A stretch of 25,981 nucleotides of DNA from the NCBI GenBank assembly GCA_048941015.1, contig JBHLNZ010000045.1:1-25981 (forward strand). The letters run 5' to 3'. Position 1 is the first letter of the stretch, and every line of letters starts with the position of its first letter. The notes below the pieces were generated by a model. The model saw only the letters and a program-made list of their open reading frames with translations. It had not been told where the DNA came from and did no database searches. The position numbers were made by a program, and so were the translations under genes. The DNA comes from Promethearchaeota archaeon. Its GTDB lineage: Archaea; Asgardarchaeota; Lokiarchaeia; Sigyniarchaeales; SOKP01. Of this stretch, positions 1,136-19,559 are shown one piece after another.

Positions 1136-3460
1136 ATGGTTAACTTTGAAGATTTTATAAACTATATTAAATCTCAAGAGTATTATAATGGTCAAATCGC
1201 TCATATCGAGCATATCCCAGAATTAAAAGCTAGATTTGATGAATTAGAAAAACCATTGAGAAAAAGATTACAACGTTGGCTCAACAATAGTAATATCAAG
1301 TTATGGAGACATCAAGCTGAAGCCATAAATCAAATTCGTAGGGGTAATAACACCGTAATCGTAACTTCTACAGCCTCAGGCAAATCTTTATGTTACAATT
1401 TATCTATTCTTGATGAAATTTTAAATAATGAAAAAACGACAGCTTTATACGTTTTTCCAACTAAAGCGTTAGCACGGGATCAATTTACAATACTATCCAA
1501 AATATTAGAAGAAACAAACATTAAGAGAGATAGAATAGGTGTGTATGATGGTGATGTTGATCCAAATGAAAAAAGAAAAATTCTATTCAATTCAAATGTA
1601 ATTATCACAAATCCTTATGGATTGCATTTTTATTTGCCATGGTTTAAACAAAAGTGGAGGAGAGTTTGTAGTAATTTAAAATACATCGTTCTAGATGAAA
1701 TTCATATTTATCGTGGAATTTTTGGTTCTAATTTTGCATTATTAATTAGGCGTTTAAAAAGAATTTTGAATTATTATGGTGTAAAACCAATATGGATTCT
1801 ATCGAGTGCTACGATTCGTAATCCAAAACAATTTTGTGAGAAATTGGTAGGTGAAGAATTCTATGTGGTTGATAGGGATGATTCTCCTTCTGGTACTAAA
1901 AAAGTTATTTTATGGGATTTACCATATGATGAAATTTCAAAAAAGTATCACTCAGCTCATCAGGAGACTAAAAATCTATTCATTAGCCATATCAAATATA
2001 AAGGTGGAATTCAAACATTAACTTTTACACTTTCAAGAAAAATGGCAGAATTGATAGCTATTTGGACAAGAAAGGAATTACCATCTATGAAAAATCAAAT
2101 TTTCAGTTATCGTGCGGGTATCAGCAAGAAGAAAAGGAGAGAAATAGAGCAAGGGTTTAAAAGCAGAAATATTCTTGGAATTAGTTCAACTAATGCGTTA
2201 GAACTAGGAATTGATATTGGCTCATTAGATGCAACAATATGTTCTGGCTTTCCTGGTACAATTTCAAGTTTTCGCCAACAAATTGGACGTTCTGGTAGAG
2301 GGAGTGACCTTTCTCTATCGACTTTTATCCCTATGCCTAACCCTTTAGATTTATTTTATATTCATAATCCGGATAAACTATTTGGACCTATCCAAGAAAA
2401 TATATTAATAACCCTGAATAATAAATATATCCTGAAAAATCACATATGTTGTGCAGCAAAAGAAATTCCCTTAATGACAGAAGATTACAAAAAGTTTGGG
2501 CTTCAAAATGTAAATTTATTTAAAGACTGTATTGAGGAGTTAATTTCAGAAGATTTGATAATGAAAAGAGGTAATAAGTTTTATTGGAGGGGAGAATATT
2601 ATCCTAATGAAAAGTATGGGTTGAATGATCTTTCATCAAGGAGTTATAAAGTATTATTAAAAACAGCAGGTACTGAGGAACTTTTAACTATTGAGGATGA
2701 AAGCTATGTTTTTAGAGATTTACATCCCGGAGCTGTATATCTTTATGAAGCCGAAACTTATATAGCTCAAGAACTTGATATTAAAGAAAGAATTGTATAT
2801 CTAACAAGAGCGGATGTTGAATTTTATACTCAATCACTGAAGCACACAGAAATCACTCCCTTAGAAACAATTTTTCAAAACGAAGTTAGGTTTAAGGATA
2901 CTAAGGAAGAGATAGAATACTATTTTGGTAATGTTAAAGTAGAACATGAATATTATGCTTATAAAGTAATTGATACTTTAACTCAAGAGACTCTTTCGCG
3001 TCATCCATTAGATGATATTCCAATAGTTGAATTTGAGACTCAGTCGGTTTGGTTTGAAATACCATTTGAGTATCAAAAAGATTTGGAACTAAAAGGTTAT
3101 AATCTTGGTGGAACAATACATGCAATAGAACATGGTATGATCGCCATGGCACCAATACTTGCCCAGATTTCTCGTTGGGATTTAGGAGGTGTATCTATAG
3201 ATTTTGATCCTATAAAGCAAAAACCAGTTATCTATATTTATGATGCTTATAAAGGTGGAGTTGGCATATCAGAGCTATTATTTAATAATTTATTAGAATT
3301 GATGAAACTTACTTATAATCTTATCAATTCTTGTAGTTGTAAAGCTGATGATGGTTGCCCTGCTTGTATTATGAGTCCTAAATGCGGAAACAATAATGAA
3401 CCGTTAGACAAAAATGGGGCGTTATTTTTACTATCCAGAATGCTAGCTTTAGAAGTTTAA
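1136..3460 (+). CDS. SF2 DEAH-box helicase with C-terminal DUF1998 Zn-binding domain (MrfA/YprA/SftH/Hrq1 family)
   Basis: Q motif LWRHQ, Walker A TASGKS, PTKALARDQ, DEIH, SAT, TNALELGIDIG, QQIGRSGR, HPGAVY, HAIEH, YDAYKGGVG and C-terminal CSC..GCPAC..PKC. Confidence 0.93.
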   Translation: MVNFEDFINYIKSQEYYNGQIAHIEHIPELKARFDELEKPLRKRLQRWLNNSNIKLWRHQAEAINQIRRGNNTVIVTSTASGKSLCYNLSILDEILNNEKTTALYVFPTKALARDQFTILSKILEETNIKRDRIGVYDGDVDPNEKRKILFNSNVIITNPYGLHFYLPWFKQKWRRVCSNLKYIVLDEIHIYRGIFGSNFALLIRRLKRILNYYGVKPIWILSSATIRNPKQFCEKLVGEEFYVVDRDDSPSGTKKVILWDLPYDEISKKYHSAHQETKNLFISHIKYKGGIQTLTFTLSRKMAELIAIWTRKELPSMKNQIFSYRAGISKKKRREIEQGFKSRNILGISSTNALELGIDIGSLDATICSGFPGTISSFRQQIGRSGRGSDLSLSTFIPMPNPLDLFYIHNPDKLFGPIQENILITLNNKYILKNHICCAAKEIPLMTEDYKKFGLQNVNLFKDCIEELISEDLIMKRGNKFYWRGEYYPNEKYGLNDLSSRSYKVLLKTAGTEELLTIEDESYVFRDLHPGAVYLYEAETYIAQELDIKERIVYLTRADVEFYTQSLKHTEITPLETIFQNEVRFKDTKEEIEYYFGNVKVEHEYYAYKVIDTLTQETLSRHPLDDIPIVEFETQSVWFEIPFEYQKDLELKGYNLGGTIHAIEHGMIAMAPILAQISRWDLGGVSIDFDPIKQKPVIYIYDAYKGGVGISELLFNNLLELMKLTYNLINSCSCKADDGCPACIMSPKCGNNNEPLDKNGALFLLSRMLALEV

Positions 3461-4642: not shown

Positions 4643-4879
4643 ATTAATACTAATAGCTTTTTTACTATTAATTTGCCTTTATTTCTTGGGAGTCGAGATT
4701 ATGTCACATTTCAAATCTAAATTAGCAAATATAAAAGAATATTTTTGAAAAATTATCTAAATCCACTAATTTGATCGCTTAAGAATAAATTCATAACTAA
4801 TTTTTAAAAATCAGTTAAGAAAAAAATAAGATATTAGCTTAAATGATCATTTTTTGACGACTAAATTTTTACTTGGTTA

Positions 4880-4945
4880 TACCCATTTCCTACCCATTTA
4901 TGAGAAAAAGTCATTTTTCTGTCAATAAAAGTCATTTTTCTGTCA
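4880..4945. repeat. Phased direct repeats: TACCCATTT x2 (4880-4888, 4891-4899) and AAAAGTCATTTTTCTGTCA x2 (4906-4924, 4927-4945)
   Basis: Exact repeats read from the sequence, with periods of 11 and 21 bp; GTCA recurs at 4910, 4921, 4931 and 4942. Confidence 0.85.
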
Positions 4946-5014
4946 TTATGCATCATGATTGTAAGTTTAATTATAATTTTTGGGAAAAAGTTCACTAAAA
5001 AATAATGTTTTCCG

Positions 5015-5075
5015 GATTCCGTCAAATTGAATACAAAAAGAGTCAGCTTTTCAAGATTTTAGCCGATTCCGCCAA
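5015..5075. repeat. Dispersed direct repeat GATTCCGYCAA x2 (5015-5025, 5065-5075)
   Basis: 10 of 11 bases identical, 50 bp apart, relatively GC-rich in an AT-rich spacer. Confidence 0.6.
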
Positions 5076-5172
5076 TTCAGAGAAGGAAATTATCCCAATA
5101 CATTTAAATACTAAATCATTCTTATTAAAATTAATAATAAAAATAAAAAGTAATAAAAAAAAGTGAAAAAAA

Positions 5173-5508
5173 ATGTCGATATTAGAACTTCAAGAGAAAG
5201 TAAAAATAATTTCTGATGAACAATTAAAAGAATTATATTCCTTAGCTAGTAAAGTAAGTTTAGACGCAATTGAAGAATTGTGCCCTGCTTTATTAAATAT
5301 TTGTTTAAATGCTGAGGGTGGAGTATTAAAAAATGAACTTGGAAGAGTTATATTCCATTTACAAAAATTAGAAAGATTAAATACAAGAATAGGATTAGAG
5401 AAGCTCTTACATGGTGCTTTAATGGTGAATGCAGAAGAAGTATTTAAACTTTTAGAAGAAGCAGAAGAAAAAGGATTAGCTGATAATATTAAAGAGCTTT
5501 TTCAATAA
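5173..5508 (+). CDS. Hypothetical all-alpha protein (111 aa)
   Basis: ATG start, codon usage like highly expressed neighbours, amphipathic helical Leu/Glu/Lys pattern, T8 tract just downstream; no motif recognised. Confidence 0.85.
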   Translation: MSILELQEKVKIISDEQLKELYSLASKVSLDAIEELCPALLNICLNAEGGVLKNELGRVIFHLQKLERLNTRIGLEKLLHGALMVNAEEVFKLLEEAEEKGLADNIKELFQ

Positions 5509-5515
5509 TTAAAGA

Positions 5516-5523
5516 TTTTTTTT
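5516..5523 (+). terminator. Putative archaeal oligo-T terminator
   Basis: T8 run beginning 7 nt after the stop of 5173..5508. Confidence 0.45.
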
Positions 5524-5613
5524 ACCTTTCTTATTTTAATTTAAAATTATTCTATAATTTAATAAAAAAAAGACTTAGAAATCTATATTTTTTATCATTC
5601 ATTTTATTTTATA

Positions 5614-5895
5614 ATGACAGAAGAAGAGAAAAGGGAAGACTCAGATTTAGACAAAGCTTGGGATTACTATGAAAAGATACATTCAGCACTAACAGGTCTG
5701 TATGATATTCTTAGTATGAGCATGGATAAAAACAATATTTTCTATCAATGTGCGATAGACAATCTGGAAAATTTAAAAGAGACTATTATCAACATGCTAA
5801 AGCATGATTATAATCCAGCTGAAATTAAACGTAAATTAAGAGATTTGGAATTTGACATGAAAAAGTCACTTTTTTTCGAGAAAGAAGGAGAATAG
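5614..5895 (+). CDS. Hypothetical acidic helical protein (93 aa)
   Basis: ATG start, plausible helical-bundle composition; no motif recognised. Confidence 0.8.
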   Translation: MTEEEKREDSDLDKAWDYYEKIHSALTGLYDILSMSMDKNNIFYQCAIDNLENLKETIINMLKHDYNPAEIKRKLRDLEFDMKKSLFFEKEGE

Positions 5896-5963
5896 TAGAC
5901 TTTTATACTTTAAAACTGTTCAGAATTATCAATTACTTATTATTAAACCAAAATTCAAGCTAA

Positions 5964-6599
5964 TTATAGATCCTTTATTCTTATCATTGACCAACTAACA
6001 ATAGATGTGTCTGGTATAATTATTTCTTCAAGAATTCTAAAACCGAAGTGATCATAAATAGCAATATTTCTCTCTATATTAGTTTCCAAATAGATAGGTA
6101 AGTTTTCATTGTCTATACGGTTTAACATTGGTTTTATAAGCTTGGATGCAAATCCTTGTCCTTGATATTCGGGATCGATACCAATAGGCCCAAAATACCA
6201 ATAGGGAACCTTCATATAGATATTACGTATAGAATCATTAACTGCTTGAATAAATGAAATTCTTTTAGTTGATTTTACTCCAAATTTTATAGGAAGCTTT
6301 ATTCCTCCATTTTTAACATATTTCCAATAAGAAATGTTAACATATTTAGGAGAACGCCACATAGCAATCCCCTCTAAATTTTCTGAAGTAGCATATACTT
6401 CACCATATTTTATACCTATTCTTAGGCTTATTTGCCATAAATAGTGAAGCTTTTTAGCTCTGGTATTAAAATCAGGAATCTGCCAGCGGATTACAGGATC
6501 GTTTAAAAATGCTCTGGATAATACTAAACTTGCAGCTTTAATATCTTTTTTTGAAAGACGTAGTAGGTTAGTTAACTCTAGCATTTTTTTTGAACTCAA
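5964..6599 (-). CDS. GNAT family N-acetyltransferase (puromycin N-acetyltransferase-like)
   Basis: AFLNDP, acetyl-CoA motif A IGIDPEYQGQGFAS, YLET..RNIAIYDHFGF. Start is TTG at 6599 or ATG at 6584. Confidence 0.9.
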   Translation of the reverse strand: MSSKKMLELTNLLRLSKKDIKAASLVLSRAFLNDPVIRWQIPDFNTRAKKLHYLWQISLRIGIKYGEVYATSENLEGIAMWRSPKYVNISYWKYVKNGGIKLPIKFGVKSTKRISFIQAVNDSIRNIYMKVPYWYFGPIGIDPEYQGQGFASKLIKPMLNRIDNENLPIYLETNIERNIAIYDHFGFRILEEIIIPDTSIVSWSMIRIKDL

Positions 6600-6747
6600 T
6601 AAAATTCGATGACAGTTAAAGTATATGTAATATTCTTAAAATTTTTAGTTTTTAAGAAATTAAAATCAAAATAGGAATATCGGAAAGTACAAAAGTCTTC
6701 AAATTTTTTCTAAATAAAGAGAATTAAATTAATTTAATGAATATAGA

Positions 6748-7770
6748 GTGTATGACTTTAAATCAGAGATTAATAAAATTGAAGACATTGTTCAAATTAA
6801 GATCGATGTACCTTTTGCCGTTAAATATGTTTGTCTTTACTTGTTTGAAGTGAATGGAAGTCGAGTATTAATTGATGCGGGACTTAATATGGGGAACTGG
6901 AAGCGAAAACTTTTCTCAGCTCTAGAAAAAGTTCAAATATCTCTTAATAATATTGATTATTGCGTCATATCTCACATACATTTAGATCATATCGGACTAT
7001 TAAGAACGATTAAGCTTAAAAATCCTGAAATGAAAATAGTGATGAATGATATAACTCATCAAATTTTCGAATGGGAGACTAATGAGAAAAACGTCTGTGA
7101 GATGGAGCAAGAAACAAAAAGTGTCGCAGATTTAATGGTCAGATATGGCATTCCTGAGGAACAAGCCCAAAAAGTTATTCAGTTTTTTACATTATGGCCA
7201 AGATATTTACAGTATCAAAAACCTGATATAATAGTGAATGATGGTGATACAATTTTAGATAATTTGGAAATTATCTGGACGCCTGGACATAGTTTTGGTC
7301 ATATATGTATTTTTGATAGAAAGAAGAGATACTTATTTGCTGGAGATCATATTCTTTCTAGAATTACTCCTCATATAGGTAATTTTGTTATAAGTCCTGC
7401 TTTAAGAAATAAATATAAATCTCATAATTTTGACAATATTTTAGATCATTATTTAAAATCCTTAGATCGAATTGATAAGTTGGAACCTAAGATAATTTTT
7501 CCAGCTCATCAAGATATAATATACAATCCACATCAGCGTATTTTAGAAATCAAAAAACATCATGATAATAGACTTCAAGAAATCTCAAATCTTATTAAAA
7601 ATAATCCATTGACTCCATTTGAGATATCTAAAATCCATTTTGGAAATGATTTGGATGAGATCAACTCGTATATGGCTATGAGTGAGGTATTAGGTCATTT
7701 AATTTTTTTAGATTACCAAAAAAAAGTAAAAAAATTTGAAAAGAATGGTAAACTTTTTTTTTTTACGTAG
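6748..7770 (+). CDS. MBL-fold metallo-hydrolase with C-terminal winged-helix-like domain
   Basis: LIDAG, SHIHLDHIG (HxHxDH), TPGHS, AGDH and PAH metal motifs; GTG start. Confidence 0.9.
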   Translation: MYDFKSEINKIEDIVQIKIDVPFAVKYVCLYLFEVNGSRVLIDAGLNMGNWKRKLFSALEKVQISLNNIDYCVISHIHLDHIGLLRTIKLKNPEMKIVMNDITHQIFEWETNEKNVCEMEQETKSVADLMVRYGIPEEQAQKVIQFFTLWPRYLQYQKPDIIVNDGDTILDNLEIIWTPGHSFGHICIFDRKKRYLFAGDHILSRITPHIGNFVISPALRNKYKSHNFDNILDHYLKSLDRIDKLEPKIIFPAHQDIIYNPHQRILEIKKHHDNRLQEISNLIKNNPLTPFEISKIHFGNDLDEINSYMAMSEVLGHLIFLDYQKKVKKFEKNGKLFFFT

Positions 7771-7796
7771 AAAACTTAACTCACTAGATTAAGTTT

Positions 7797-8315
7797 TTAA
7801 ATAACTTGTAAGTTTGTTCCACATTCTGCGCAAAATTTACAATGTATAGAAAGTTGGTTGCCACAAATTGGACAAAAGTTTACCTTTTCGCCGATTCTTT
7901 CTTGTCCAGAATAATTACAAATTTGATTAAATTTTTCTGAATAATATTCATCCTTTTTATGCAATAATTTTTTAGGGAGAATTCCCATTTCCAAAGCCCA
8001 TGATTTCATAACATTTTGTGGTACCAACCAAATAAAACCTCTACCAGCCCAAGAGAAAAAAACTTCTACACTTACATAAGTCTTTCTTTCAGAAGGGTCA
8101 TATCCAAATGTCATCTCATAAATTTCGCGAATAGAAGTACCATAGGCATGAACTGACATACCATGCTTTACTTTGAGTTCACGATAGAAAGAATTTTCAG
8201 AAATAAAGGAATTTGTTATTTTTACTGATCGTTTATTTTGCCAAAATGCTAAAGTATTATCCCAAACATCATTTATATGGGAATTTATAATATAATAACC
8301 AAATCTATATGGCAT
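7797..8315 (-). CDS. Hypothetical protein with C-terminal double zinc ribbon
   Basis: C-terminal FCPICG...FCAECGTNL; N-terminal alpha/beta domain not recognised. Confidence 0.85.
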   Translation of the reverse strand: MPYRFGYYIINSHINDVWDNTLAFWQNKRSVKITNSFISENSFYRELKVKHGMSVHAYGTSIREIYEMTFGYDPSERKTYVSVEVFFSWAGRGFIWLVPQNVMKSWALEMGILPKKLLHKKDEYYSEKFNQICNYSGQERIGEKVNFCPICGNQLSIHCKFCAECGTNLQVI

Positions 8316-8481
8316 TTTTAAGGTTTTTTCTATTTTATCAGATATATATTATTATATAAGTAAATATATAAATCTTTTGATCAATAATTCAGTATTAGTT
8401 TTTTTAAGATTTGAGCGTACTTTTCTAAATTTTAAAATATATATCTAGATATCGCTTTTGAAAATTTGAATCAAAAATTAT

Positions 8482-8949
8482 TTAAAATGATACTTTACGC
8501 TCTTGAGATATGGTTTTAATTGGTTTTAATACGACGCATACTCTTTCTACACTTTTAACATCGCTTCGACCGCGGAAATTCTCAACCAAAGCATCTAACT
8601 CAGTAATCTCGGGAACGTTTACTTTAACAAGAACTCCACATTGTCCAGCCAAAAAATATACCTCTTCACATTGGGGTAAAATCTGGGTCTCTCGAAGTAG
8701 TTCTTTCATTTCAGATTCATTCTTGGGAATAAGCGTTATAAAAGCATATATACATCTTTCCTCTTCACGACACACTTTTATAGTAAATTTTTCAATTACT
8801 CCCTCTTCTTGTAATTTTAAAACACGTTTTCTAACTGTTGATTCAGATAAACTTACTTCTGGATCTTCTGCAATATCTTTATAAGCTCTCCGTGAATCTT
8901 CAATTAACATTTCTAATATTCTTTTGTCTTTATCATCTAAATTTTTCAT
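8482..8949 (-). CDS. Lrp/AsnC family transcriptional regulator
   Basis: LDDKDKRILEML..DSRRAYKDIA..LSESTVRKRVLKLQEEGVI HTH plus C-terminal RAM-like domain. ATG at 8949 has a GAAAGGAA upstream; the track uses TTG at 8970. Confidence 0.92.
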   Translation of the reverse strand: MKNLDDKDKRILEMLIEDSRRAYKDIAEDPEVSLSESTVRKRVLKLQEEGVIEKFTIKVCREEERCIYAFITLIPKNESEMKELLRETQILPQCEEVYFLAGQCGVLVKVNVPEITELDALVENFRGRSDVKSVERVCVVLKPIKTISQERKVSF

Positions 8950-8985
8950 AGTCAATTTCTTTCCTTTCAATCTAGGTTTTGTATT

Positions 8986-9014
8986 AAAAAAAATTTTAAA
9001 TTAAAATTAAAAAA
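8986..9014 (-). terminator. Putative oligo-T terminator after metF
   Basis: A6 (9009-9014) and A8 (8986-8993) on the plus strand are T-tracts on the transcribed strand downstream of the metF stop. Confidence 0.4.
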
Positions 9015-9048
9015 TTATTTATTTTTGTTTGTTTCTTTTTTTAGAAAT

Positions 9049-10002
9049 TTACATGACATATTTGGGATAATCCTTTAATAGTGGATCAAAGAGTCTTTCA
9101 TATTCTACCGCCATACAATGAATACCAGCTGCTTTCGTAGTTTTCTTAATTTCTTTGATAAATGGTTCGAAGAATTCAATATTTATTTTATCTAGAGCGG
9201 CATATTTTGCCTGTTTATTTCCTTTGTTATCTTTTTCTGCTTTCTTTAATGATTTTAACAAATCTTTAGGCACTGAAACTCCAGGAATGTACGCATCGAA
9301 ATACCATGCGATTCCATAAGATTTCAGCGGAAATACTCCAAGTAAGACAGGTACATTAAATTGTTCTAACTCCTTAAGAAATTCTTTTGCTTGATCAATA
9401 TCAAAAGCAGTTTGAGTCTGTATAAAATCTACTCCTCTTTCTACTTTACGGCCGACCTTGAGAATTTCAGGTTCTCTTGGATTACTATTTGGATTAGCAA
9501 CACATCCAAAATTCATTTCTATTTTTCCACCTTCAAGTTCATTTCCTTCATAATCAGTTCCCTCATCAATCATAATTGAGAGCATTTCACAGAATTGTGT
9601 ACTATCAATATCATATACCGGTCGCCCTTTTTTGTGATCACCTAAAGCTGTGTGATCTCCTGTGAGTGTTAAGATATTCTTTAATCCCAGTACCGCACCA
9701 GCCACTACGTCTCCAAATAATGCCACCCGATTACGATCTCTAACTGTCACTTGCCAAACAGCTTCTATACCAACTTTTTCTTGAATAAGATAGCTTGGTA
9801 CCAGTGAAGACATATAAGCATCTCCCTGAGGTCCATCTGTTACATTTGCTGCAACAATTTTTCCTGTTTTTTTCATCTCTTCAGCAGAATGAAAGATTTC
9901 ACTGAGATCAAGAATCTTTTTAGGTTCAAGTTCACCAGTAAATACAAAATGACCCTCTTCAATTGCTTCACATAATTTACTATATGCAGGTCTTTTCGCC
10001 AT
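9049..10002 (-). CDS. metF: 5,10-methylenetetrahydrofolate reductase, acetogen-type MetF
   Basis: FTGELEP (catalytic Glu), NVTDGP, RDRNRVAL, LTGDH (catalytic Asp), FIQTQ, PGVSVP, GIHCMA. ATG at 10002 lies 1 nt after the metV stop and follows GGAGG (10015-10019); the track start 10029 overlaps metV. Confidence 0.93.
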   Translation of the reverse strand: MAKRPAYSKLCEAIEEGHFVFTGELEPKKILDLSEIFHSAEEMKKTGKIVAANVTDGPQGDAYMSSLVPSYLIQEKVGIEAVWQVTVRDRNRVALFGDVVAGAVLGLKNILTLTGDHTALGDHKKGRPVYDIDSTQFCEMLSIMIDEGTDYEGNELEGGKIEMNFGCVANPNSNPREPEILKVGRKVERGVDFIQTQTAFDIDQAKEFLKELEQFNVPVLLGVFPLKSYGIAWYFDAYIPGVSVPKDLLKSLKKAEKDNKGNKQAKYAALDKINIEFFEPFIKEIKKTTKAAGIHCMAVEYERLFDPLLKDYPKYVM

Positions 10003-10003
10003 C

Positions 10004-10702
10004 TTATTGTTTCGCCTCCACTTTTTCATCTTCTTCGTTAGTATATTCTTTATATATTGTTATATAGCTTGGACTTGTCGAAGTGCGATAATCTCGGGGT
10101 CCTCGATATTTTTTAAACAAATCGAGTCGGTTAAATTCTTTTAAGCGTTGCCACATCCGTACCCATGCACAAGGAATAGTATATCCACCAACCTCACACA
10201 TACCATCCACCATACCTCCACATGGGCCATTACTCAAATGCTTAGCGCACCCAGCACGCGGACAGACGCCACCAGTTTCTCCAATTATACAATCACCACA
10301 TTCTTCACAATATTCTATAAAGCTATTCTCTCCATTGTTTTGAGCACCACCAAAATGACTATTTTGCGCAGGAAATGTAAGTATATTAGGTAATACTTTA
10401 TTTAACATAACTACGCCGAGACCACAAGCTAATGAAACAATAGCATCAAAATTCTCTATATGAGGTCCTACGGTGGTTGCTGCTATTCTATCATCACATT
10501 GTCTGAGAACTGTTATTGCTTTCCATTTTAATTCTTTTCCTTCAGTTCTAGCTTTTAACTCTAGAAGTTGTCCAAGTACTTTTGCTTCGTTTAATGAGCG
10601 AGGTGGTTGACAGCAACCATCACAACCAGCGATCAAGATTTTATTATAATCTTTAACCATGTCGTAAATTTCGTTTATATCTTTTAGTTGTGTAATTATC
10701 AT
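10004..10702 (-). CDS. metV: Methylenetetrahydrofolate reductase small Zn/Fe-S subunit MetV (MTHFR_C domain)
   Basis: GCDGC, RQCD, LACGLG, CEECGDC..GGVCP..CAKHLSNGPCGG..GMCEV..CAW; lies directly upstream of metF; AAGGAG RBS. Confidence 0.92.
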   Translation of the reverse strand: MIITQLKDINEIYDMVKDYNKILIAGCDGCCQPPRSLNEAKVLGQLLELKARTEGKELKWKAITVLRQCDDRIAATTVGPHIENFDAIVSLACGLGVVMLNKVLPNILTFPAQNSHFGGAQNNGENSFIEYCEECGDCIIGETGGVCPRAGCAKHLSNGPCGGMVDGMCEVGGYTIPCAWVRMWQRLKEFNRLDLFKKYRGPRDYRTSTSPSYITIYKEYTNEEDEKVEAKQ

Positions 10703-10793
10703 ATTACATAACTCCTTTCTTTCAAACTTTTTTGGTTTTTTATTTTAAATTTTTAATTATATCTTATATTGTGTTTAAATAAAATTACACTAA

Positions 10794-11675
10794 TTAGGTT
10801 GTTAATTTCTCAATTAACTTATTTGGTTTAATACTTCTATTAGTTAAACTAAGTTCTTCTAGTTCCACTCCCAAACCTATAGCCATCATCTCAGCTAAAT
10901 AAAGAACCGGAATATCTAATTCTTTACCTGTTCTCCGTGCGATGATTCTTTCTTTCCTATCATACTGAGTAGTACACGCGGGACAGACGGCTATTAAAGC
11001 ATCAACTTCTTCTTCAAGCTCACATAGCTCAGTCATTTTATCTTCTACTAGTTTTTCTCCAATCTCTTCCTGCAGTCTCGCACAGTATCCACAACATTCC
11101 AACTTATTAGCAAAATCTATTGTTTTAGCACCAAGAGCTTGAAGAATTATATCTATTTTCTCTGGTTTTTCTGGGTGATCAAATTGCATTATTTTACTTG
11201 GCCTTACTAAATGACAGCCATAGTGGACTGCGAGATTTAAATTATCTAATGGTTTTATTAATAGGTTTTTGATTTTCTCTAACCATTCTGGTTGACTAAA
11301 TAATTCAACAAAGTGATATACTTTCGTCTTACCAGTGTATTTATAGTTAATTTTTGCTAATATTCCATTGATTTTCTTAAGATATTCCTTGTCTTCTTCT
11401 AATAATACACTTACTGTCTTTAAAGTTTCATAACATCCAGAACAAATGGTTAAAATGTTTAATCCCATTTTTTCAGCAATAGCTAGATTTCTTGCACCTA
11501 ATGCAACCCAAGTATCAATATTTAATGATTGCATTGATACAGGTTCAGGACAGCAACTAACGCCTTCCATTTCTTTCAATTTAACATCTAAAATTTTGGC
11601 AACATCCCTAAAAGCTTTCTCTAAATGAGGTAATTTAAGGGGTATTGTACATCCTAAGAATAGAGCGTATTCCAT
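10794..11675 (-). CDS. hdrB: Heterodisulfide reductase subunit B
   Basis: Two complete CCG domains: FLGC...SCCP...CSGC and HYGCH...ECCG...CPAC. TAATG overlap with the hdrC stop. Confidence 0.95.
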   Translation of the reverse strand: MEYALFLGCTIPLKLPHLEKAFRDVAKILDVKLKEMEGVSCCPEPVSMQSLNIDTWVALGARNLAIAEKMGLNILTICSGCYETLKTVSVLLEEDKEYLKKINGILAKINYKYTGKTKVYHFVELFSQPEWLEKIKNLLIKPLDNLNLAVHYGCHLVRPSKIMQFDHPEKPEKIDIILQALGAKTIDFANKLECCGYCARLQEEIGEKLVEDKMTELCELEEEVDALIAVCPACTTQYDRKERIIARRTGKELDIPVLYLAEMMAIGLGVELEELSLTNRSIKPNKLIEKLTT

Positions 11676-12208
11676 TATTTATCTTCCACCTCTTCTTTTG
11701 CGAGACTACCAAGTCCCGTTTCTTCTATTATAAATCTAATTTCTTCTAAATTTGGTGGAATCAACTCTGGCAATCCCATCCTATTTCTACGTCTATCAAC
11801 ATTATCTTTAAGACCGCCTGTATATGGTACAACATATCCATTATTATAAATTGTTACCACTGTGCTTGAATATTCTTTAGGTATCTTTCCTTCTTTAACT
11901 GCCATGTTTCTTAACAGCGCTAAGATAAATGAGTAATCAACATTCTTAGGGCAGCGTTCAGTACATCTATGACATAATGAACAAGTCCAGATAGCGTTAC
12001 TGGAAAGTACTTCTTCTTTTAAGCCCAAAAGGCAAGCAGCAACAACTCGATGAGGTTGTAAATCTACATATTCAGTAACAGTACAGCCGCTACTACATAC
12101 ACCACATTGAATACATTTAAGAAGGGACTTAGCTCCAACTTTTTCACTAATTTCATATCTAAATGAGTGATCTAATTGTTTAGCATCTTTTTTTAACATT
12201 TCGGTCAT
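11675..12208 (-). CDS. hdrC: Heterodisulfide reductase subunit C
   Basis: CIQCGVCSSGC and IWTCSLCHRCTERCP, C-terminal RRNRMGLP; located between hdrA and hdrB; GGAGG RBS. Confidence 0.95.
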   Translation of the reverse strand: MTEMLKKDAKQLDHSFRYEISEKVGAKSLLKCIQCGVCSSGCTVTEYVDLQPHRVVAACLLGLKEEVLSSNAIWTCSLCHRCTERCPKNVDYSFILALLRNMAVKEGKIPKEYSSTVVTIYNNGYVVPYTGGLKDNVDRRRNRMGLPELIPPNLEEIRFIIEETGLGSLAKEEVEDK

Positions 12209-12211
12209 TTT

Positions 12212-15200
12212 TTATACTGCCTCCTTGACTTTTTCTTTCTTTTGTTTAATTTTATCTCCCGTTTTGGATAAAGGTCCAAGTTCTTTTATTTTATTTACAA
12301 AATCGGTTACAACTTGAGAGAAACGCTTACCTTCACTCGCGGAAACCCATTCGAGTCTATAGCGATCTGGGTTGATACCAACTTTTTCAAGAATTTCATG
12401 AAGCGCATTATACCGTCTTAACATGTCATAATTTCCTTCTAAATAATGACAATCTCCAATATGACAGCCTCCAACCAAAACCCCATCAGCTCCTTCTAAA
12501 AAAGCTTGTAGTATGAAGCGTTTTGGAATTCTACCCGTACACATCACTCTTATAGGCCTAATATTGGTAGGATATTGAAATCTGCTAACACCACATGTAT
12601 CTGCACCAGCATAACTGCACCAATTACACAAGAAAGCTACAATACGAGGTCTTTCATCTATAAATTCTCCTCTGACAGCTTCTTGAATCATAGGATTAAT
12701 TTGCTCATCTGCAAAATGACTCATCGTTATGGCTCCTGCCGGGCATGCTGCAGCACAATCACCACATCCTTTACAAAGTAGCGGATTTGATTCGGAAACT
12801 AATATTTCATTATCAAAATTCACTCCAATAGCTCCAAAATTGCAAACTTCTTCACATTTTTGACATGCAATACATAATGCTGGATTTACAACTGAAACTA
12901 AAGGTTCATTTTCTACTTCTCCAGAAATTAGTGGTATTAATGCATGAGCAGCGGCACCTCTTCCTTGAGAGATTGAATCCGCAATACCTTTAGGTCCATG
13001 ACATGTCCCTGCTAAATAAATTCCATCGGTTGCAAAATCAACTGGTCTTAATTTTACATGTGCTTCTAAAAAGAAACCACTTTGATCTCTTGCACATTTT
13101 ATCTGTTCACCTAGTTTTTGAGTATCGTGAGGAACTAAAGGTGTGGAAAGTACAACCTTATCAGCTTCAATATCTAAATCTGTTTGAGTCAAAATATCTT
13201 TAACATTTACCTTCAATTTACCATTAATAATATCAACAGTAGGATAATCATTAAATCTAATATAATTGATATTCTCCCGAGCTTTCCAATAGTAAGGTTC
13301 TTCATCAGTTCCTACTCGTATGTCTCTGTAAAGTACATAGATATTAGATTTTGGATAATTTTCTTTAACATACAGAGCATGTCTGATAGATTCCGAACAA
13401 CAAATAAGTGAACAATAAGTAAATCCATTGCCGCCTTCTGGTTGCCTTGAACCAACACAATGAATAAAGACAAGAGTTTCTCCATCAGCTAATTCCTTAT
13501 TTCTTAATTTTTCTGACAATTCAAGCTGAGTTATAACATTTTCATTTTCACCATAATGGTACCACCCTTTAGGTTTGTATTCATAAGCTCCTGTGGCTGT
13601 AATAATTACACCAACATTTAACTCAAGTTCTTTCCCGTCAACATTGTTTTTTACCTTAACTTTAAAATTTCCAATAGACCCTTTTACATCAGCTACTATA
13701 GAATTCAAATAAGTTGAAATATTCTTTTGAGAGTTAAAATTCTTTAACTTTTCATTAAGAAATTCTTCCGAATCAATCCTATCAAAATTTATTTTATAAA
13801 TTTGATTTAATTGACCTCCTAATTTGTCTTCTTTTTCTACAAGATGGACTTTAAAGCCTTTATTCGCAATTTCCATTGCTGCACTTAATCCTGAGATTCC
13901 ACCGCCAACAATCAGTGCTTCTGGAACCACATTCCCTTTGATTTTGAATTCTGATTTCTGAGCTCTTACACGAGCTACGCCCATTCTGATTAAATCTTTT
14001 GCTTTATCAGTAGCTTTAGGATTATCGTTCATGTGTACCCAAGAGTCTAATTCTCGAATACTAACGAAATTAAAAAGATATTCATTTAGTCCTGCTTCTC
14101 TGATTGTTTTTTGAAACAATGGTTCATGAGTTCTTGGTGTACAGGCAGCTACAACTACTCTATTCAGATCTAATTCTTCAATTTTCTCTTTAATTATATC
14201 TTGGGTCAGTTGTGAGCAACTATATTTATTTTCCATAGCATAAACAACGTTGGGAAGCGTTTTTGCATATTCTACTAAATTAGGAACATCCATATATCCT
14301 GCGATGTTAATACCACAACGGCAAACAAATACACCTATTCTGGGTTCATCACTGACTTTAACCTCTTTTAAAGGTGGAAGCTCAACTTTTTGTTCCTCTT
14401 CACTTAATGGGATTGCATAACTCGCAGCAAGTGCGGCTGCACCACCCGCTTTTGCAACAGAATTGGCTATGTCATCTGGCGATTGGCAGGAACCAGTCAC
14501 AAATATTCCAGGTTTAGTAGATTTTAAATCCTCAGTTGAATTTGCTGTTTTAAAAAATCCAAATTCATTTTGTTCAATCCCCAATATTTTTGCCAGTTCA
14601 TTCGCATCTTTTCTTGGGGTTACTGCATTTGCAAGTACTACTAGATCATATTCATCTACATCTACTTCTCCTGTATCCAAATTAGCTGATTTAACGATTA
14701 AGTTATGATTATCGGGATGTTCTCTAACATCTCCTGGAATTCCATGATGATATTTTAACTTATATTCGTTCTTTGCTCGAACAGTAAATTCATCTTGATT
14801 CTTACCTATAACTCTTAAATCGTTGAAATAGATTGTCACATTTGTATCAGGAGCATGTTCTCGGGTTACAACTGCTTCTTTGGTTTGATACATACAGCAA
14901 AATTTAGAACAATAAGAACAAAGATCCTCATTTCTAGACCCAACACAACTAACAAATGCAATATTATGCGCATGTACTTTGTCTGAGGGGCGTTGTATTT
15001 CCCCTCCTGTAGGTCCAGAAGCACTTAGTAATCTTTCATACTGCATTGCTGTAATTACATTTGGATATTCGCCGTAATGATATCGATCCAAAACAGAAGG
15101 ATCAAGTTGATCATATCCAGTTGCTACAATAATAGAAGCTACATTGTATTCTACTATTTCATCTTTATCTTCCCAATTTATTGCTCCAGCTTCACATTCT

Positions 15201-15709
15201 TTTTCGCAAAGTTGGCATGCACCTTTCGTTAAATAAAGACATTTGTCTGGATCAATAACAGCTTTCCTAGGAACTGCCTGTGGAAATGGGATATAAATCG
15301 CAGTTCTGTTTCCCATTGCTTCTTCAAATTCCGATGGTATTTTTTTCATAGGACACTTTTCACTACAAGCACCACACCCAGTACACGCATCCCAATTTAC
15401 ATATTTTGCCTTCTTTTTCACTTTCACTTTAAAATCTCCAGCTTTACCAGTTACATTCTGAACTTCGGAATAAGCTAAAAGATCAATGTTAGGATGTCTG
15501 CTAGATTCAACCATTTTAGGGGCAAGAATGCATATACTACAATCTAATGTAGGGAATGTTTTATCTAACTGCGCCATTCGACCTCCTACTGAGGAAGTTT
15601 TTTCTACAAGAATTACTCTGTATCCTTGCTCTGCTAAGGTCAAAGAGGCTTCTATCCCCGAAATTCCGCCACCAATTACCATTATATTACTATTTGCCAT
15701 TTTTGCCAT
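12212..15709 (-). CDS. hdrA: Tandem heterodisulfide reductase subunit A (two FAD modules) fused to a C-terminal MvhD [2Fe-2S] domain
   Basis: Two GGGISG FAD motifs; KTFPTLDCSIC; inserted ferredoxin CTGCGACSEKCP / CQLCEKEC; two CVGSR..CSxxCC cluster motifs; internal HdrA N-terminal domain GVFVCRCG..AACTPRTHE; C-terminal ferredoxin; MvhD motifs FLCNWCSY, MCTGR, GCHIGDCHY, WVSASEG. Confidence 0.95.
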   Translation of the reverse strand: MAKMANSNIMVIGGGISGIEASLTLAEQGYRVILVEKTSSVGGRMAQLDKTFPTLDCSICILAPKMVESSRHPNIDLLAYSEVQNVTGKAGDFKVKVKKKAKYVNWDACTGCGACSEKCPMKKIPSEFEEAMGNRTAIYIPFPQAVPRKAVIDPDKCLYLTKGACQLCEKECEAGAINWEDKDEIVEYNVASIIVATGYDQLDPSVLDRYHYGEYPNVITAMQYERLLSASGPTGGEIQRPSDKVHAHNIAFVSCVGSRNEDLCSYCSKFCCMYQTKEAVVTREHAPDTNVTIYFNDLRVIGKNQDEFTVRAKNEYKLKYHHGIPGDVREHPDNHNLIVKSANLDTGEVDVDEYDLVVLANAVTPRKDANELAKILGIEQNEFGFFKTANSTEDLKSTKPGIFVTGSCQSPDDIANSVAKAGGAAALAASYAIPLSEEEQKVELPPLKEVKVSDEPRIGVFVCRCGINIAGYMDVPNLVEYAKTLPNVVYAMENKYSCSQLTQDIIKEKIEELDLNRVVVAACTPRTHEPLFQKTIREAGLNEYLFNFVSIRELDSWVHMNDNPKATDKAKDLIRMGVARVRAQKSEFKIKGNVVPEALIVGGGISGLSAAMEIANKGFKVHLVEKEDKLGGQLNQIYKINFDRIDSEEFLNEKLKNFNSQKNISTYLNSIVADVKGSIGNFKVKVKNNVDGKELELNVGVIITATGAYEYKPKGWYHYGENENVITQLELSEKLRNKELADGETLVFIHCVGSRQPEGGNGFTYCSLICCSESIRHALYVKENYPKSNIYVLYRDIRVGTDEEPYYWKARENINYIRFNDYPTVDIINGKLKVNVKDILTQTDLDIEADKVVLSTPLVPHDTQKLGEQIKCARDQSGFFLEAHVKLRPVDFATDGIYLAGTCHGPKGIADSISQGRGAAAHALIPLISGEVENEPLVSVVNPALCIACQKCEEVCNFGAIGVNFDNEILVSESNPLLCKGCGDCAAACPAGAITMSHFADEQINPMIQEAVRGEFIDERPRIVAFLCNWCSYAGADTCGVSRFQYPTNIRPIRVMCTGRIPKRFILQAFLEGADGVLVGGCHIGDCHYLEGNYDMLRRYNALHEILEKVGINPDRYRLEWVSASEGKRFSQVVTDFVNKIKELGPLSKTGDKIKQKKEKVKEAV

Positions 15710-16201: not shown

Positions 16202-16882
16202 ATGAAAATTGTAGTTAGTGGTCCGTTGCAGTGTGGAAAGTCAAGTTTTATCCGCAAGCTAGATGAGAATGCGCTAAATGTTGAAGCAAAAGCTCGTGAC
16301 AATAAATACTATACTGTCGGAATGGATCTAGGGTGCGTGAAACTCAATGGATTTGACGTCTTTTTATTTGGTACTCCTGGCTTACTAAGATTCAACGTTA
16401 TGAGAGATGTTGTAATTAGAGGTACAGACGGATTAATTTTTATTTTTGATGCGGCTCATCCAGAAAAAGACGAGGATGCTATCGTAATTTTGAACTCAAT
16501 AAGAAAATTGATTGATCCTGACGCACCAATAGTATATTTGGCTAATAAACAAGATATTGCTGGAGCGCGTCATCCCGAGGTGGTTAAAACTCAAAATTAT
16601 TTACCCCAGGAAGCTATTATCTTTGGTACAAGTACTAAAACTGGAGAAAATCTTGAAGAAGCATTGAAGAATCTTGTCAACCAAATCTATGAAAACTATT
16701 CATCTCTTATTAAAATTCTGAAGACATATGAAGAAGATATCCCTGGTTTAGCGGAAAAGTTAGAAAAAGGCCCGAAAGAAATGAGAGATTTTCTGAATAA
16801 TCTTGAGATTAAAAGATTTATTGAAATTGATCGTCAGAAAAAAACTTTTAAAGTAAAACACGGTTTAAAACTTTTAATTTAA
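16202..16882 (+). CDS. Small GTPase (MglA/conservon/Arf-like) with a C-terminal winged-helix-like extension
   Basis: G1 GPLQCGKSS, G2 TVGMD, G3 GTPGL, G4 NKQD, G5 STK; about 60 extra C-terminal residues in a helix-helix-beta hairpin pattern. Confidence 0.9.
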   Translation: MKIVVSGPLQCGKSSFIRKLDENALNVEAKARDNKYYTVGMDLGCVKLNGFDVFLFGTPGLLRFNVMRDVVIRGTDGLIFIFDAAHPEKDEDAIVILNSIRKLIDPDAPIVYLANKQDIAGARHPEVVKTQNYLPQEAIIFGTSTKTGENLEEALKNLVNQIYENYSSLIKILKTYEEDIPGLAEKLEKGPKEMRDFLNNLEIKRFIEIDRQKKTFKVKHGLKLLI

Positions 16883-17595: not shown

Positions 17596-19509
17596 TTATA
17601 ATTCTGAAGGTAAAATTAAATCTTTATTGTATTGATTCCTTACTTTCTTTAGTTCATCTCTTTGCCTATAAAGAGTTTCCCAGAAAAATTGAGGGATATT
17701 TTTCTCCTTTTTGTAAATCTTTTCAATTCTATCTAATTTTTCAAGTAATTGCGATACTCTTATGGAGAATTGTTCTTCAAAATCTTTTTCAGAATATATT
17801 TTATTAAGATAAGTATTAAAAAGTTGTTTAAGATCGTGATATTTTGGTATATATCCAATAGGGGTCTTTATTACGTCAAATTCATTATTACATCGCCCAT
17901 TTGCCCATAAAACCCAAACCAATTTGTCTAACATCCCATTCAAATACTTTCCCTCTTCATTTTTTAAGAAATAGTTTGTAGCAAAGATTTTAGGTGGATA
18001 TTTCAAACGAGCACCAAATTTCTGATGATTTTTTAAATATTTTCCTATAGGAACCACTATAAAGTCGAGATTTGCCATTGGCTGCCAAGATCTCACACCT
18101 TCAGCACCAAGAGTGGCAGATGTTGTTTCAGATTCAATAGAAGCACCTAAAAAGACTCCATTTTCCCAATCTATGCTTTCAAGTACTGGAGGCATTGTAT
18201 CGCTATCTCTACCTCCATAAAAAATACCATGAATGGGTACTCCATCAGGATTATGAAGATTAGGATCAGTATTGCTAAGTTCTTCAAGACGTATTGTATA
18301 ACGAGCATTTGGATGAGCTAGTGGAATTTCTTTACCATTTTTATCTTTCTTACCTTTATACCAGTTTCCCGAAAAATTAAATCCTTTATCTGGAATTTCT
18401 CTCCCATCTCCAATCCAATAGGGAGTTTCAGTTTCAGTTTCAATAAGCACATTAGAAAAAATAGTCTCTCGAGGTGAAGTTAACGCTTTAAAAATAAGGG
18501 GGTCATCTTTTGCATTCACATCCTTTATAATTCCAAAAATTCCTCTTTCAATGTTTACTGCATGAGCATAACCATCATCCCAAACTCGAAGATATGCTAT
18601 ATCATCTCCGACTATTTGTTGTCCAGGGAGCATTGCAGTGCTTGTTTTTCCACAAGCAGAAGGATATGCTCCACAAAAGTATGTTATTCTGTTTTTGTTA
18701 TCAGGAAGTGCTCCCATAATAAAGTAGTGCTCCGTAAGCCAATCCTCGTTATTTGCTTTATAAATTCCTAATCTTAGAGCAAGTTTTTTCAGTCCTATTG
18801 AATTTCCGGCATATTGATTATTTACTGAGAGGACACGACTTTCTTTCAAATCTATATAAATTCTACGGTTTTCAAGATTTTTCGTAACAGGGGGGTCTCC
18901 AATCAAATCTCCTGAAGAGTGAATAAAGTAAAAAAATTCATCAGAACCTTTTAGTCGTTTAAACTCCTCATAACCAGATCGGTATAGGAGATCTTCAGAA
19001 TGAGCAACATAAAAGGAATCAGTTAATTGCAGAGCAAGAATTGAAAACTTAGAGTTTACAGGACCCAAACAGAAAAACCTTACAAGACATTCATGCCCTT
19101 TCATACAACCATCCATTATTTCCAAGATTTCACTTAATCCTTCGTTTCTATCCATAGTATTTATCCAAGGATATACATTGTCGTCTTCTTTAGGTATCAA
19201 GACTTGTGTATGCTCCTTATCTCGAGCTTGATCATGATTTGCCATAGTTATAAAGCCATCAAAATGAACTGTATTCCCTTCCAATTTTAACTTTTGCTCT
19301 TCTCCGATTTGAATCGTTTTGTGTCTTACGTAATCGATATCTTGTTTAGAATCTGAAATTACTGAGATCTTACTTGGTTTGCATAGATCGGTAAATTGAG
19401 TTATAATACGTAAAACGTGATTATTTTTTAGAGCAAGTAATTTCTCGAAATCTTTTTGTGATAAAAGATCCTTCTTAACGTAATCATTAATTGTATCTAA
19501 AGAATCCAT
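17596..19509 (-). CDS. pckG: Phosphoenolpyruvate carboxykinase (GTP)
   Basis: DQARD, YAGNSIGLKKLALR, WLTEH, YPSACGKTS, VGDDIAY, AHPNARYT, FYGGRD. ATG at 19509 preferred over the track's TTG at 19527. Confidence 0.95.
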   Translation of the reverse strand: MDSLDTINDYVKKDLLSQKDFEKLLALKNNHVLRIITQFTDLCKPSKISVISDSKQDIDYVRHKTIQIGEEQKLKLEGNTVHFDGFITMANHDQARDKEHTQVLIPKEDDNVYPWINTMDRNEGLSEILEIMDGCMKGHECLVRFFCLGPVNSKFSILALQLTDSFYVAHSEDLLYRSGYEEFKRLKGSDEFFYFIHSSGDLIGDPPVTKNLENRRIYIDLKESRVLSVNNQYAGNSIGLKKLALRLGIYKANNEDWLTEHYFIMGALPDNKNRITYFCGAYPSACGKTSTAMLPGQQIVGDDIAYLRVWDDGYAHAVNIERGIFGIIKDVNAKDDPLIFKALTSPRETIFSNVLIETETETPYWIGDGREIPDKGFNFSGNWYKGKKDKNGKEIPLAHPNARYTIRLEELSNTDPNLHNPDGVPIHGIFYGGRDSDTMPPVLESIDWENGVFLGASIESETTSATLGAEGVRSWQPMANLDFIVVPIGKYLKNHQKFGARLKYPPKIFATNYFLKNEEGKYLNGMLDKLVWVLWANGRCNNEFDVIKTPIGYIPKYHDLKQLFNTYLNKIYSEKDFEEQFSIRVSQLLEKLDRIEKIYKKEKNIPQFFWETLYRQRDELKKVRNQYNKDLILPSEL

Positions 19510-19559
19510 TTTTTCTCGATAAATCAATCTATACTTTCAAAAGTGAAAATATCGTTAAA

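Follow-up and report, generated by a model that had tools for sequence, protein, structure and literature searches.

A type II tandem HdrA fused to MvhD in an Asgard hdr-met operon as a likely single-chain stand-in for the HdrA homodimer

Flavin-based electron bifurcation (FBEB) of the heterodisulfide reductase (Hdr) type is central to how methanogens, acetogens and sulfate reducers conserve energy, and probably has the same importance in the hydrogen-dependent Asgard archaea of eukaryote-origin models. Its canonical flavoprotein, (HdrA)2, is a symmetric homodimer that holds two complete units with 12 [4Fe-4S] clusters and 2 FAD (Protein Data Bank (PDB) entries 5ODC, 8RVU and 9SW2-9SW6). Crystallography has shown that one ligand of each N-terminal cluster, Cys197, is contributed by the other HdrA, and the dimer is therefore obligate (PMC9012536). 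Here we analyze a protein, termed P0001, in which two unlike HdrA modules and an MvhD domain are joined in one chain. It is encoded on contig JBHLNZ010000045.1 of a Promethearchaeota archaeon (assembly GCA_048941015.1), of which we analyzed a stretch of 25,981 nucleotides, henceforth termed the window. We consider it likely that P0001 is an Asgard type II HdrA with fused MvhD that acts as an intramolecular stand-in for (HdrA)2, one of whose symmetric catalytic units has been deleted. This reading builds on what we observed of its domains and folds, the conservation of its cofactor ligands, its operon and its distribution; the dimer-like packing, which flavin bifurcates, the substrates and the direction of the reaction are what we infer.

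Tandem HdrA proteins have been described before. Fusions from ANME archaea show a complementary loss of the N-terminal cluster domain and of the Cys197-type cysteine and were read as self-contained heterodimers, and the HdrA of the Moorella MetFV-HdrABC-MvhD complex was counted as the fused type (PMC9012536). The class has been named type II HdrA, and its origin was traced to one ancient event in which HdrA proteins of two distinct type I classes became fused (PMC12054007). Domain maps and a one-sided Glu/Lys signature are available for the HdrA of Sporomusa ovata (PMC9430772), and duplicated-HdrA fusions with C-terminal MvhD have been catalogued in Thor- and Lokiarchaeota (PMC11237513). Since both the architecture and its reading as a heterodimer have been published from work on ANME archaea and acetogens, and catalogues of the fusion include Asgard lineages, our finding is a correct rediscovery whose gain lies in confirmation and refinement, not in discovery. 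Added here are a one-to-one match of the retained parts to the cross-protomer unit seen by cryo-EM, an invariant Ser/Arg pair at the predicted second flavin site of Asgard MetFV-linked orthologs, and a split paralog in the same genome, along with the observation that the HdrA2 model is passed only by the summed halves of P0001. The literature searched yielded no paper that specifically discusses an Asgard MetFV-Hdr cluster, and neither there nor in the PDB did we find that a tandem HdrA or an Hdr-type methylene-tetrahydrofolate (methylene-THF) reductase has had its structure solved.

P0001 is the product of a single uninterrupted open reading frame (ORF) of 1165 codons at 12212-15709 on the minus strand, preceded by an AT-rich spacer of 490 bp in a window that is itself AT-rich (G+C 28-36%). 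We compared the protein with all PDB chains by phmmer. The 654-residue HdrA of Methanothermococcus thermolithotrophicus (5ODC_A) was matched in three pieces, which stand in permuted order along P0001. Residues 8-386 correspond to HdrA 145-518, i.e., the TrxR-like domain with its inserted ferredoxin, residues 454-620 to HdrA 2-168, the N-terminal domain, and residues 876-1009 to HdrA 514-647, the end of the TrxR domain and the C-terminal ferredoxin. They are followed by MvhD, with residues 1020-1148 matching 5-133 of 5ODC_D (2.1e-50). Pfam placed FAD/Rossmann starts at 9-46 and 598-636, three ferredoxin-type stretches, and the MvhD/FlpD domain PF02662 at the C-terminus (1023-1145, 1.2e-52). Residues 621-875, left unaligned by phmmer, proved in a self-comparison to be a diverged second TrxR domain, and the two TrxR domains are 30-40% identical to each other. 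Both open with a GGGISG Rossmann start (residues 13-18 and 602-607). Module 1 further carries DCSIC (56-60), CVGSR (255-259) and CSKFCC (267-272), and module 2 carries CRCG (463-466), AACTP (521-525), CVGSR (751-755) and CSLICC (766-771).

An earlier note on this DNA, made from the letters and their translations, had assigned FAD, DCSIC, an inserted 2x[4Fe-4S] ferredoxin and a CVGSR/CSxxCC cluster to module 1, and an N-terminal CRCG/AACTP domain, FAD, a second CVGSR/CSxxCC cluster and a C-terminal ferredoxin to module 2, with MvhD behind it. The phmmer matches and motifs bear out this content in full. Its statement that module 2 lacks DCxxC and the inserted ferredoxin also held in the self-comparison, in which a ferredoxin of about 88 residues is cleanly missing and no cysteine stands at the position equivalent to DCxxC. 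Its boundaries were right to about 15 residues; the C-terminal ferredoxin, which it had ended at 12720, reaches about residue 1012 (12674). As it had proposed, each accessory part occurs exactly once in the chain: the N-terminal domain, the Cys pair, the inserted and the C-terminal ferredoxin, and MvhD. FAD sites and HA4 clusters are retained twice.

Module 1 corresponds to the rigid core of HdrA and is collinear with 5ODC 145-518, relative to which the second motif of its inserted ferredoxin has five additional residues (CLYLTKGACQLC). In alignments to solved HdrA there is no gap from residue 8 to DCSIC, so that C57/C60 correspond to Cys194/Cys197 in 5ODC and to Cys202/Cys205 in 8RVU (M. marburgensis). 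C60 is thus the counterpart of the very cysteine that ligates the partner's N-terminal-domain cluster (PMC9012536), a contact that the earlier note had also named. The inserted ferredoxin has the ligands C109, C112, C115, C119, C157, C165, C168 and C172, and the HA4 site C255, C267, C271 and C272. E225 and K277 align with E356 and K409 of 5ODC, the Glu/Lys bifurcation signature used to separate bifurcating from non-bifurcating HdrA flavins (PMC9430772, PMC12054007). The cysteines of the N-terminal domain are absent from module 1 and occur as C463, C465, C498 and C523 in module 2 only. Module 2 keeps GGGISG and the HA4' motif (C751, C766, C770 and C771) and has S732/R776 in place of the Glu/Lys signature.

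Every domain and every cluster-ligand set of (HdrA)2 is recognizable in P0001, and MvhD is conserved in fold and cysteines. The predicted inventory differs from that of the homodimer, in that the single chain of P0001 would form only one unit and bind 7 [4Fe-4S] and 2 FAD, with a [2Fe-2S] domain fused to it. Like the ANME type II HdrA and fused HdrA3-HdrA4 proteins, P0001 has two TrxR-like FAD domains in one chain and shows the type II complementarity, with C57/C60 only in module 1 and the N-terminal cluster domain only in module 2. In the ANME fusions, however, the half with the N-terminal domain comes first (PMC9012536), whereas the Cys-pair half leads in P0001, and P0001 differs further in its fused MvhD, the metVF genes in its cluster and an Asgard host that is not methane-metabolising. 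Its module order is that of the HdrA from the Hdr-type methylene-THF reductases of Moorella thermoacetica and S. ovata, namely an extra TrxR, an N-terminal domain, a TrxR without inserted ferredoxin and a C-terminal ferredoxin. These systems also share the operon partners hdrB, hdrC, mvhD, metV and metF, and in S. ovata the Glu/Lys signature occurs only in the first TrxR domain, as in P0001 (PMC9430772). The 1487-residue Moorella HdrA contains a GltD-type NAD(P)H/FAD insertion that P0001 lacks, and the 942-residue S. ovata HdrA is described with only one additional TrxR-like domain and five [4Fe-4S], whereas P0001 keeps the inserted ferredoxin of module 1; in both bacteria MvhD is a separate gene.

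The earlier note had likened the protein to a QmoA+QmoB fusion, which is a fair comparison: both Qmo proteins are HdrA homologues, unlike each other, and the larger, QmoB, has an MvhD-like domain (PMC3333476), so that the pair parallels module 1 and module 2 + MvhD. Qmo differs in its separate genes, its membrane subunit QmoC (cytochrome b plus an HdrC-like part) and its aprBA linkage (PMC3333476), as against the soluble HdrC, HdrB and MetVF encoded here. No NCBIfam QmoA or QmoB model matched either half of P0001 at E <= 1e-20, and the neighboring HdrC is not a QmoC, as it scores 64.6 bits with the qmoC model, whose cut-off is 300, and aligns only to model positions 3-100 of 360. We also rejected two single-module identities. 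The canonical HdrA model NF041778 scores 755.5 bits against a cut-off of 1400, in three stretches of permuted order, and P0001 is not a single module of about 650 residues. The HdrA2 of Methanosarcina acetivorans (NF040770, type Ia) has a C-terminally fused MvhD like P0001 but a single TrxR; the whole of P0001 scores 1175 bits against the cut-off of 1100, and the halves alone 486 and 700. As the cut-off is passed only by summing the halves, the name HdrA2 would mislead.

The distribution of parts between the modules can be compared with a cryo-EM study of the canonical complex, in which an arm, made up of the N-terminal domain with HA3, the C-terminal ferredoxin and MvhD, serves the flavin of the partner protomer (PMC13580544). 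There, the [2Fe-2S] of MvhD approaches Cys202'/Cys205' and FAD' of the partner. The high-potential electron of FAD' passes to HA4' and on to HdrB, by way of HdrC in the proposed route, and the low-potential electron is taken by HA3 of the arm, which swings back to HA5'/HA6' of the partner's inserted ferredoxin. In P0001, module 1 would provide exactly the partner parts (FAD with Glu/Lys, C57/C60, HA4 and HA5/HA6), and module 2 with MvhD exactly the arm parts (HA3 domain, C-terminal ferredoxin and [2Fe-2S]). The deleted mirror-image unit would comprise the arm on module 1 and the Cys pair and inserted ferredoxin on module 2. The single directional electron path proposed in the earlier note is thereby given in more detail. 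The location of the partner parts suggests that the flavin of module 1 is the single bifurcating site, with which the one-sided Glu/Lys signature agrees. The TrxR domain of module 2 would have been kept as a dimer scaffold, with a flavin site differently tuned by the invariant Ser/Arg and with its own HA4 cluster. Reduction of the methylene to the methyl group would constitute the high-potential branch and ferredoxin the low-potential branch, and a donor would dock at MvhD, possibly a [NiFe] hydrogenase encoded elsewhere in the genome. The expected cofactor load per chain is 2 FAD, 7 [4Fe-4S] and 1 [2Fe-2S], or about 30 Fe. As a natural "half-of-sites" construct, a single-chain HdrA with one symmetric unit reveals the minimal working unit of the dimer, and it would be a simpler target than the dimer for structure determination and mutagenesis.

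Conservation was assessed in an alignment of 66 collinear relatives (33-88% identity) and in the 120 closest clusters (78-89% identity). The latter, which we treat as orthologs, all stem from Asgard metagenome-assembled genomes (MAGs) labelled Prometheo-, Loki-, Thor-, Hermod-, Hod- or Heimdallarchaeota. Across the 66 relatives, the eight cysteines of the inserted ferredoxin, the four of each CVGSR/CSxxCC site and the eight of the C-terminal ferredoxin show no or almost no variation; the HA4 ligands of module 1 are present in all 66. The four N-terminal-domain cysteines are retained in 63-65 of the relatives, C57 and C60 in 65 and 64, and E225 and K277 likewise in 65 and 64. The region of module 2 equivalent to DCxxC is free of cysteine in 53/66 and contains DCxxC in none (0/66). 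In the orthologs, all ligand cysteines, among them the eight of the C-terminal ferredoxin and the six of the MvhD part, are invariant together with C57/C60, E225/K277, S732 and R776 (120/120). The TrxR domains of modules 1 and 2 show the same mean identity of 83%; the inter-module linker is the least conserved segment (65%, compared with 83-91% elsewhere). Module 2, being as conserved as module 1, is therefore under selection and not decaying.

An AlphaFold2 model built with the 66-sequence alignment reached a mean pLDDT of 90.6 and a pTM of 0.91, with pLDDT values of 93-97 in module 2 and 87-94 in the linker region. We compared folds with VIA-align on single chains. Module 1 (3-434) superposed on 5ODI_A 140-567 with a Z score of 38.2 and an rmsd of 1.2 Å over 426 residues, and fitted equally well to the "core-only" cryo-EM HdrA chains 8RWN_A (149-575) and 7BKE_A (142-583), in whose entries mobile parts are unmodelled. 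Module 2 (454-1014) superposed as one body on 5ODC_A 2-652 (Z 33.9, rmsd 2.8 Å, 558 residues) and, in the model, retains the arrangement of N-terminal, TrxR and C-terminal ferredoxin domains of the crystal form. The possibility, raised in the earlier note, that the second module is unfolded or degenerate is at odds with its pLDDT, with Z scores of 22-24 for its TrxR fold and with its 83% conservation. A pTM of 0.91 would not be expected if the two halves, of about 430 and 730 residues, had been placed independently of each other, so that the model represents one compact arrangement.

The same genome encodes at least four further tandem HdrA paralogs with 44-47% identity and the module order and cysteine distribution of P0001. 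One of these (G000:C3:57070-60030, locus L004), 46% identical, is split at the linker by a TGA at locus positions 3169-3171. The split site reads ...IIRGG, GGAGGT-TGA, and 9 nt further on an ATG opens the module 2 frame. We considered and ruled out selenocysteine at this in-frame TGA; given its linker position and the ribosome-binding site (RBS) and ATG right after it, it is a stop. The paralog thus represents a "core" HdrA gene and an "arm" HdrA gene that are coupled in translation, and the modules exist also as separate interacting subunits. The occurrence of one pair in fused and split forms is a classical sign of interacting partners. The other two-TrxR paralogs are located at C131:6318-9383 (L002), C3:53255-56251 (L005), C84:~4832-9736 (L003) and C131:1353-5687 (L006). 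In one two-TrxR paralog, a frame of about 1520-1665 aa, the inserted ferredoxin is followed by a large insertion, and MvhD is present as well; another, of 922 aa, has two TrxR modules without the N-terminal domain. Unlike P0001, L002, L003, L005 and L006 all keep Glu/Lys in module 2. In-frame TGA codons, one or two, occur in several canonical HdrA paralogs and adjacent MvhD paralogs (C137:2196-4634, C44:40665-43078, C5:3487-5903 and C131:13431-15837), and fit reports of selenoprotein HdrA/MvhD pairs in Asgard archaea (PMC11227280).

Several points weigh against a half-deleted dimer with a single bifurcating flavin. Two bifurcation sites have been proposed for type II HdrA since both of its TrxR domains keep K409/E356 (PMC12054007), and P0001 could by this token be a double bifurcase in which both flavins are active and each chain runs two FBEB reactions. 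Module 2 retains GxGxxG, HA4' and a high degree of conservation, and in the wider family it often carries the Glu (42/66) and the Lys (32/66), as do other paralogs in this genome. Its FAD motifs and all four HA4' cysteines are kept in 66/66 relatives and 120/120 orthologs, and module 2 must therefore be more than a scaffold. We nevertheless hold a double bifurcase to be improbable here: P0001 departs from the published type II pattern in having S732/R776, and Ser/Arg occupy these positions of module 2 in every one of the 120 ortholog clusters. Module 2 further has no Cys pair or inserted ferredoxin of its own and there is no second arm to serve it, so that the low-potential exit and the MvhD entry described by cryo-EM (PMC13580544) exist once only. 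The retained flavin site might instead have been put to another use. In this scenario, the Asgard MetFV-linked group would be one-sided bifurcases in which the module 2 flavin and HA4' form a non-bifurcating relay to a different partner, e.g., MetV/MetF, and not to a second HdrBC. We put this forward tentatively and regard it as rather unlikely; if true, the two former protomers would feed two different acceptor modules, a division undescribed for any Hdr. Among the 66 relatives, moreover, the few without the Cys pair (P0224 and P0205) differ from those without N-terminal-domain cysteines (P0211, P0227, P0226 and P0261). The losses are uncorrelated; they favor neither side and lend no covariation support to a fixed bond between Cys60 and HA3. 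In the cryo-EM account the Cys pair is dynamic between the MvhD cluster and the flavin and not a fixed ligand (PMC13580544), a caveat to the contact named in the earlier note. Concerning the partners, the HdrB and HdrC homologues fall below the equivalog cut-offs for a true CoB-CoM heterodisulfide reductase, so that a CoM-S-S-CoB function is not implied, no donor gene was found within the window, and the MetVF of S. ovata interacted with Hdr subunits in pulldowns without copurifying tightly (PMC9430772).

A dimer-like packing of the two modules is suggested indirectly by the pTM of 0.91, the superpositions of each half, the split paralog and analogy. The modules could instead pair with counterparts in a second chain, as a domain-swapped dimer of tandems, or form a loose string of domains. 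The linker, the least conserved segment, which spans 42-71 residues from D413 to C463 across relatives, would be long enough for swapping. However, the high pTM corresponds to a single confident compact arrangement, and the genes of the split paralog are adjacent and translationally coupled. Pairing of like modules would moreover place two Cys pairs together without an N-terminal domain in the 1-1 case and the reverse in the 2-2 case, which would make the complementarity senseless, and we judge such assemblies very improbable. The two-gene version in this genome could also raise the suspicion that the long ORF joins neighboring hdrA genes by an assembly error or frameshift. This is refuted for practical purposes, since many MAGs yielded more than 100 independent ortholog clusters that share 78-89% identity and a length of about 1160 aa with P0001, and since collinearity over residues 8-1010 extends to more than 100 clusters defined at the 50% level; in addition, the linker is modelled at pLDDT 87-94. 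The chance of such an artefact is negligible. We therefore retain P0001 as the likely single-chain equivalent of the HdrA dimer.

The hdrA-mvhD gene heads a minus-strand operon, hdrA-hdrC-hdrB-metV-metF (9049-15709), which brings all six functions hdrA, hdrB, hdrC, mvhD, metV and metF into one cluster (Table 1). Judged by its operon, the complex presumably acts in the Wood-Ljungdahl pathway as an Hdr-type reductase of methylene-THF (or of methylene-tetrahydromethanopterin, methylene-H4MPT). As the genome (3.59 Mb in 144 contigs, 95% complete) contains Mch (356 bits), the C1 carrier may, unlike in Moorella and Sporomusa, be H4MPT. For Mer, the best match in the genome stays below the TIGR03555 cut-off (109 vs 348.7 bits); MetF is present in a second copy. 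With Mch present, Mer below cut-off and MetF in two copies, MetF may perform the methylene-to-methyl step and thereby replace Mer in an H4MPT-type branch of the pathway. P0001 would then mark the likely site of this step in a Wood-Ljungdahl pathway with Mch and no recognisable Mer. At G000:C53:4339-8670, the sole match to a [NiFe] hydrogenase large subunit in the genome (PF00374, a 441-aa frame) lies directly downstream of an 850-aa HdrA-MvhD-like frame. It may be the module that donates electrons to Hdr complexes with MvhD.

Table 1. Positions of the tandem HdrA-MvhD protein, its parts and its operon partners in the window, and of related C1 genes elsewhere in the genome
Feature	Position	Strand	Evidence
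Whole ORF: type II tandem HdrA fused to MvhD, 1165 aa, P0001	12212..15709	-	AF2 pLDDT 90.6, pTM 0.91
Module 1, residues 1-432: TrxR-like FAD domain with inserted ferredoxin	14414..15709	-	
DCSIC, residues 56-60	15530..15544	-	gap-free alignment to solved HdrA
Inserted ferredoxin domain, residues ~99-190, 2x[4Fe-4S] HA5/HA6	15140..15415	-	
Module 1 HA4 motif CVGSR...CSKFCC	14894..14947	-	
Inter-module linker, residues 433-453	14351..14413	-	
Module 2 N-terminal domain, residues 454-590, HA3 "shuttle" cluster site	13940..14350	-	
Module 2 TrxR-like FAD domain, residues 591-930	12920..13939	-	
C-terminal ferredoxin domain, residues 931-1012, 2x[4Fe-4S]	12674..12919	-	
Fused MvhD domain, residues 1013-1165, [2Fe-2S]	12212..12673	-	PF02662
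HdrC homologue, 177 aa, two CxxCxxCxxxC motifs	11675..12208	-	TIGR03290 102 bits, cut-off 160
HdrB homologue, 293 aa, both CCG motifs intact	10794..11675	-	TIGR03288 268 bits, cut-off 345; PF02754 x2
MetV, 232 aa	10004..10702	-	PF12225, 1.4e-27
MetF methylene-tetrahydrofolate reductase, 326 aa	9049..10029	-	PF02219
Mch / sub-cut-off Mer / second MetF set	G000:C94:19382-20350; C3:41266-42231; C91:20427-21164		

A HMMER search of 1.84 billion representatives returned 2840 clusters at E <= 1e-30. We carried out the architecture census that had been proposed as a check by segment BLAST on the best 150 of these clusters. Core, N-terminal domain, TrxR and C-terminal ferredoxin is the dominant order, with about 45 exact cases plus variants. 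Among the same 150, MvhD is fused in six, a large insertion of the Moorella/GltD type follows the inserted ferredoxin in about 25, and about ten are canonical single-module HdrA. Forms with this insertion reach about 1300-1500 aa. Module 2 + MvhD is also found as a protein by itself, of about 720 aa and lacking the Cys pair (P0250), a QmoB-like counterpart of the fusion. Fusions in reverse order, i.e., module 2 and MvhD followed by module 1, as reported for HdrA3/4 of ANME archaea (PMC9012536), could not be confirmed in our data; the candidates P0207 and P0220 carry module 2 + MvhD, but their C-terminal extensions are unrelated and have no DCxxC.

Related loci were scanned in one genome per species with a 12-sequence alignment, which gave at least 596 loci. 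The best 80, which were inspected, span Asgard archaea, Bathyarchaeia, Thermoplasmata/Methanomassiliicoccales, ANME-2, Methanoperedens, Archaeoglobi and bacteria, the last including Desulfobacterales, Dehalococcoidia, Planctomycetota and Nitrospirota, besides others. An hdrC-like gene occurs at 50 of these 80 loci, and metV or metF lies within 6 kb at 10-13 of them, in Desulfobacterales, Nitrospirota, Planctomycetota and Asgard hosts. At one locus in Promethearchaeia ABR04 (L012, match 6001-11138), MetV and MetF with 73-74% identity to those of the window follow a much longer HdrA-like match of 5.1 kb; MetFV-linked HdrA thus occurs in an insertion-bearing form within Asgard archaea too.

The operon is flanked by genes for a GTP-dependent phosphoenolpyruvate (PEP) carboxykinase (NF003253, 595 bits; window 17596-19527, minus strand) and an Lrp/AsnC-type regulator (8482-8970, minus strand). 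Divergent from it, the plus strand at 16202-16882 encodes a small GTPase of 226 aa that belongs to the Ras/Arf type (PF00071, PF00025), as is typical of Asgard genomes.

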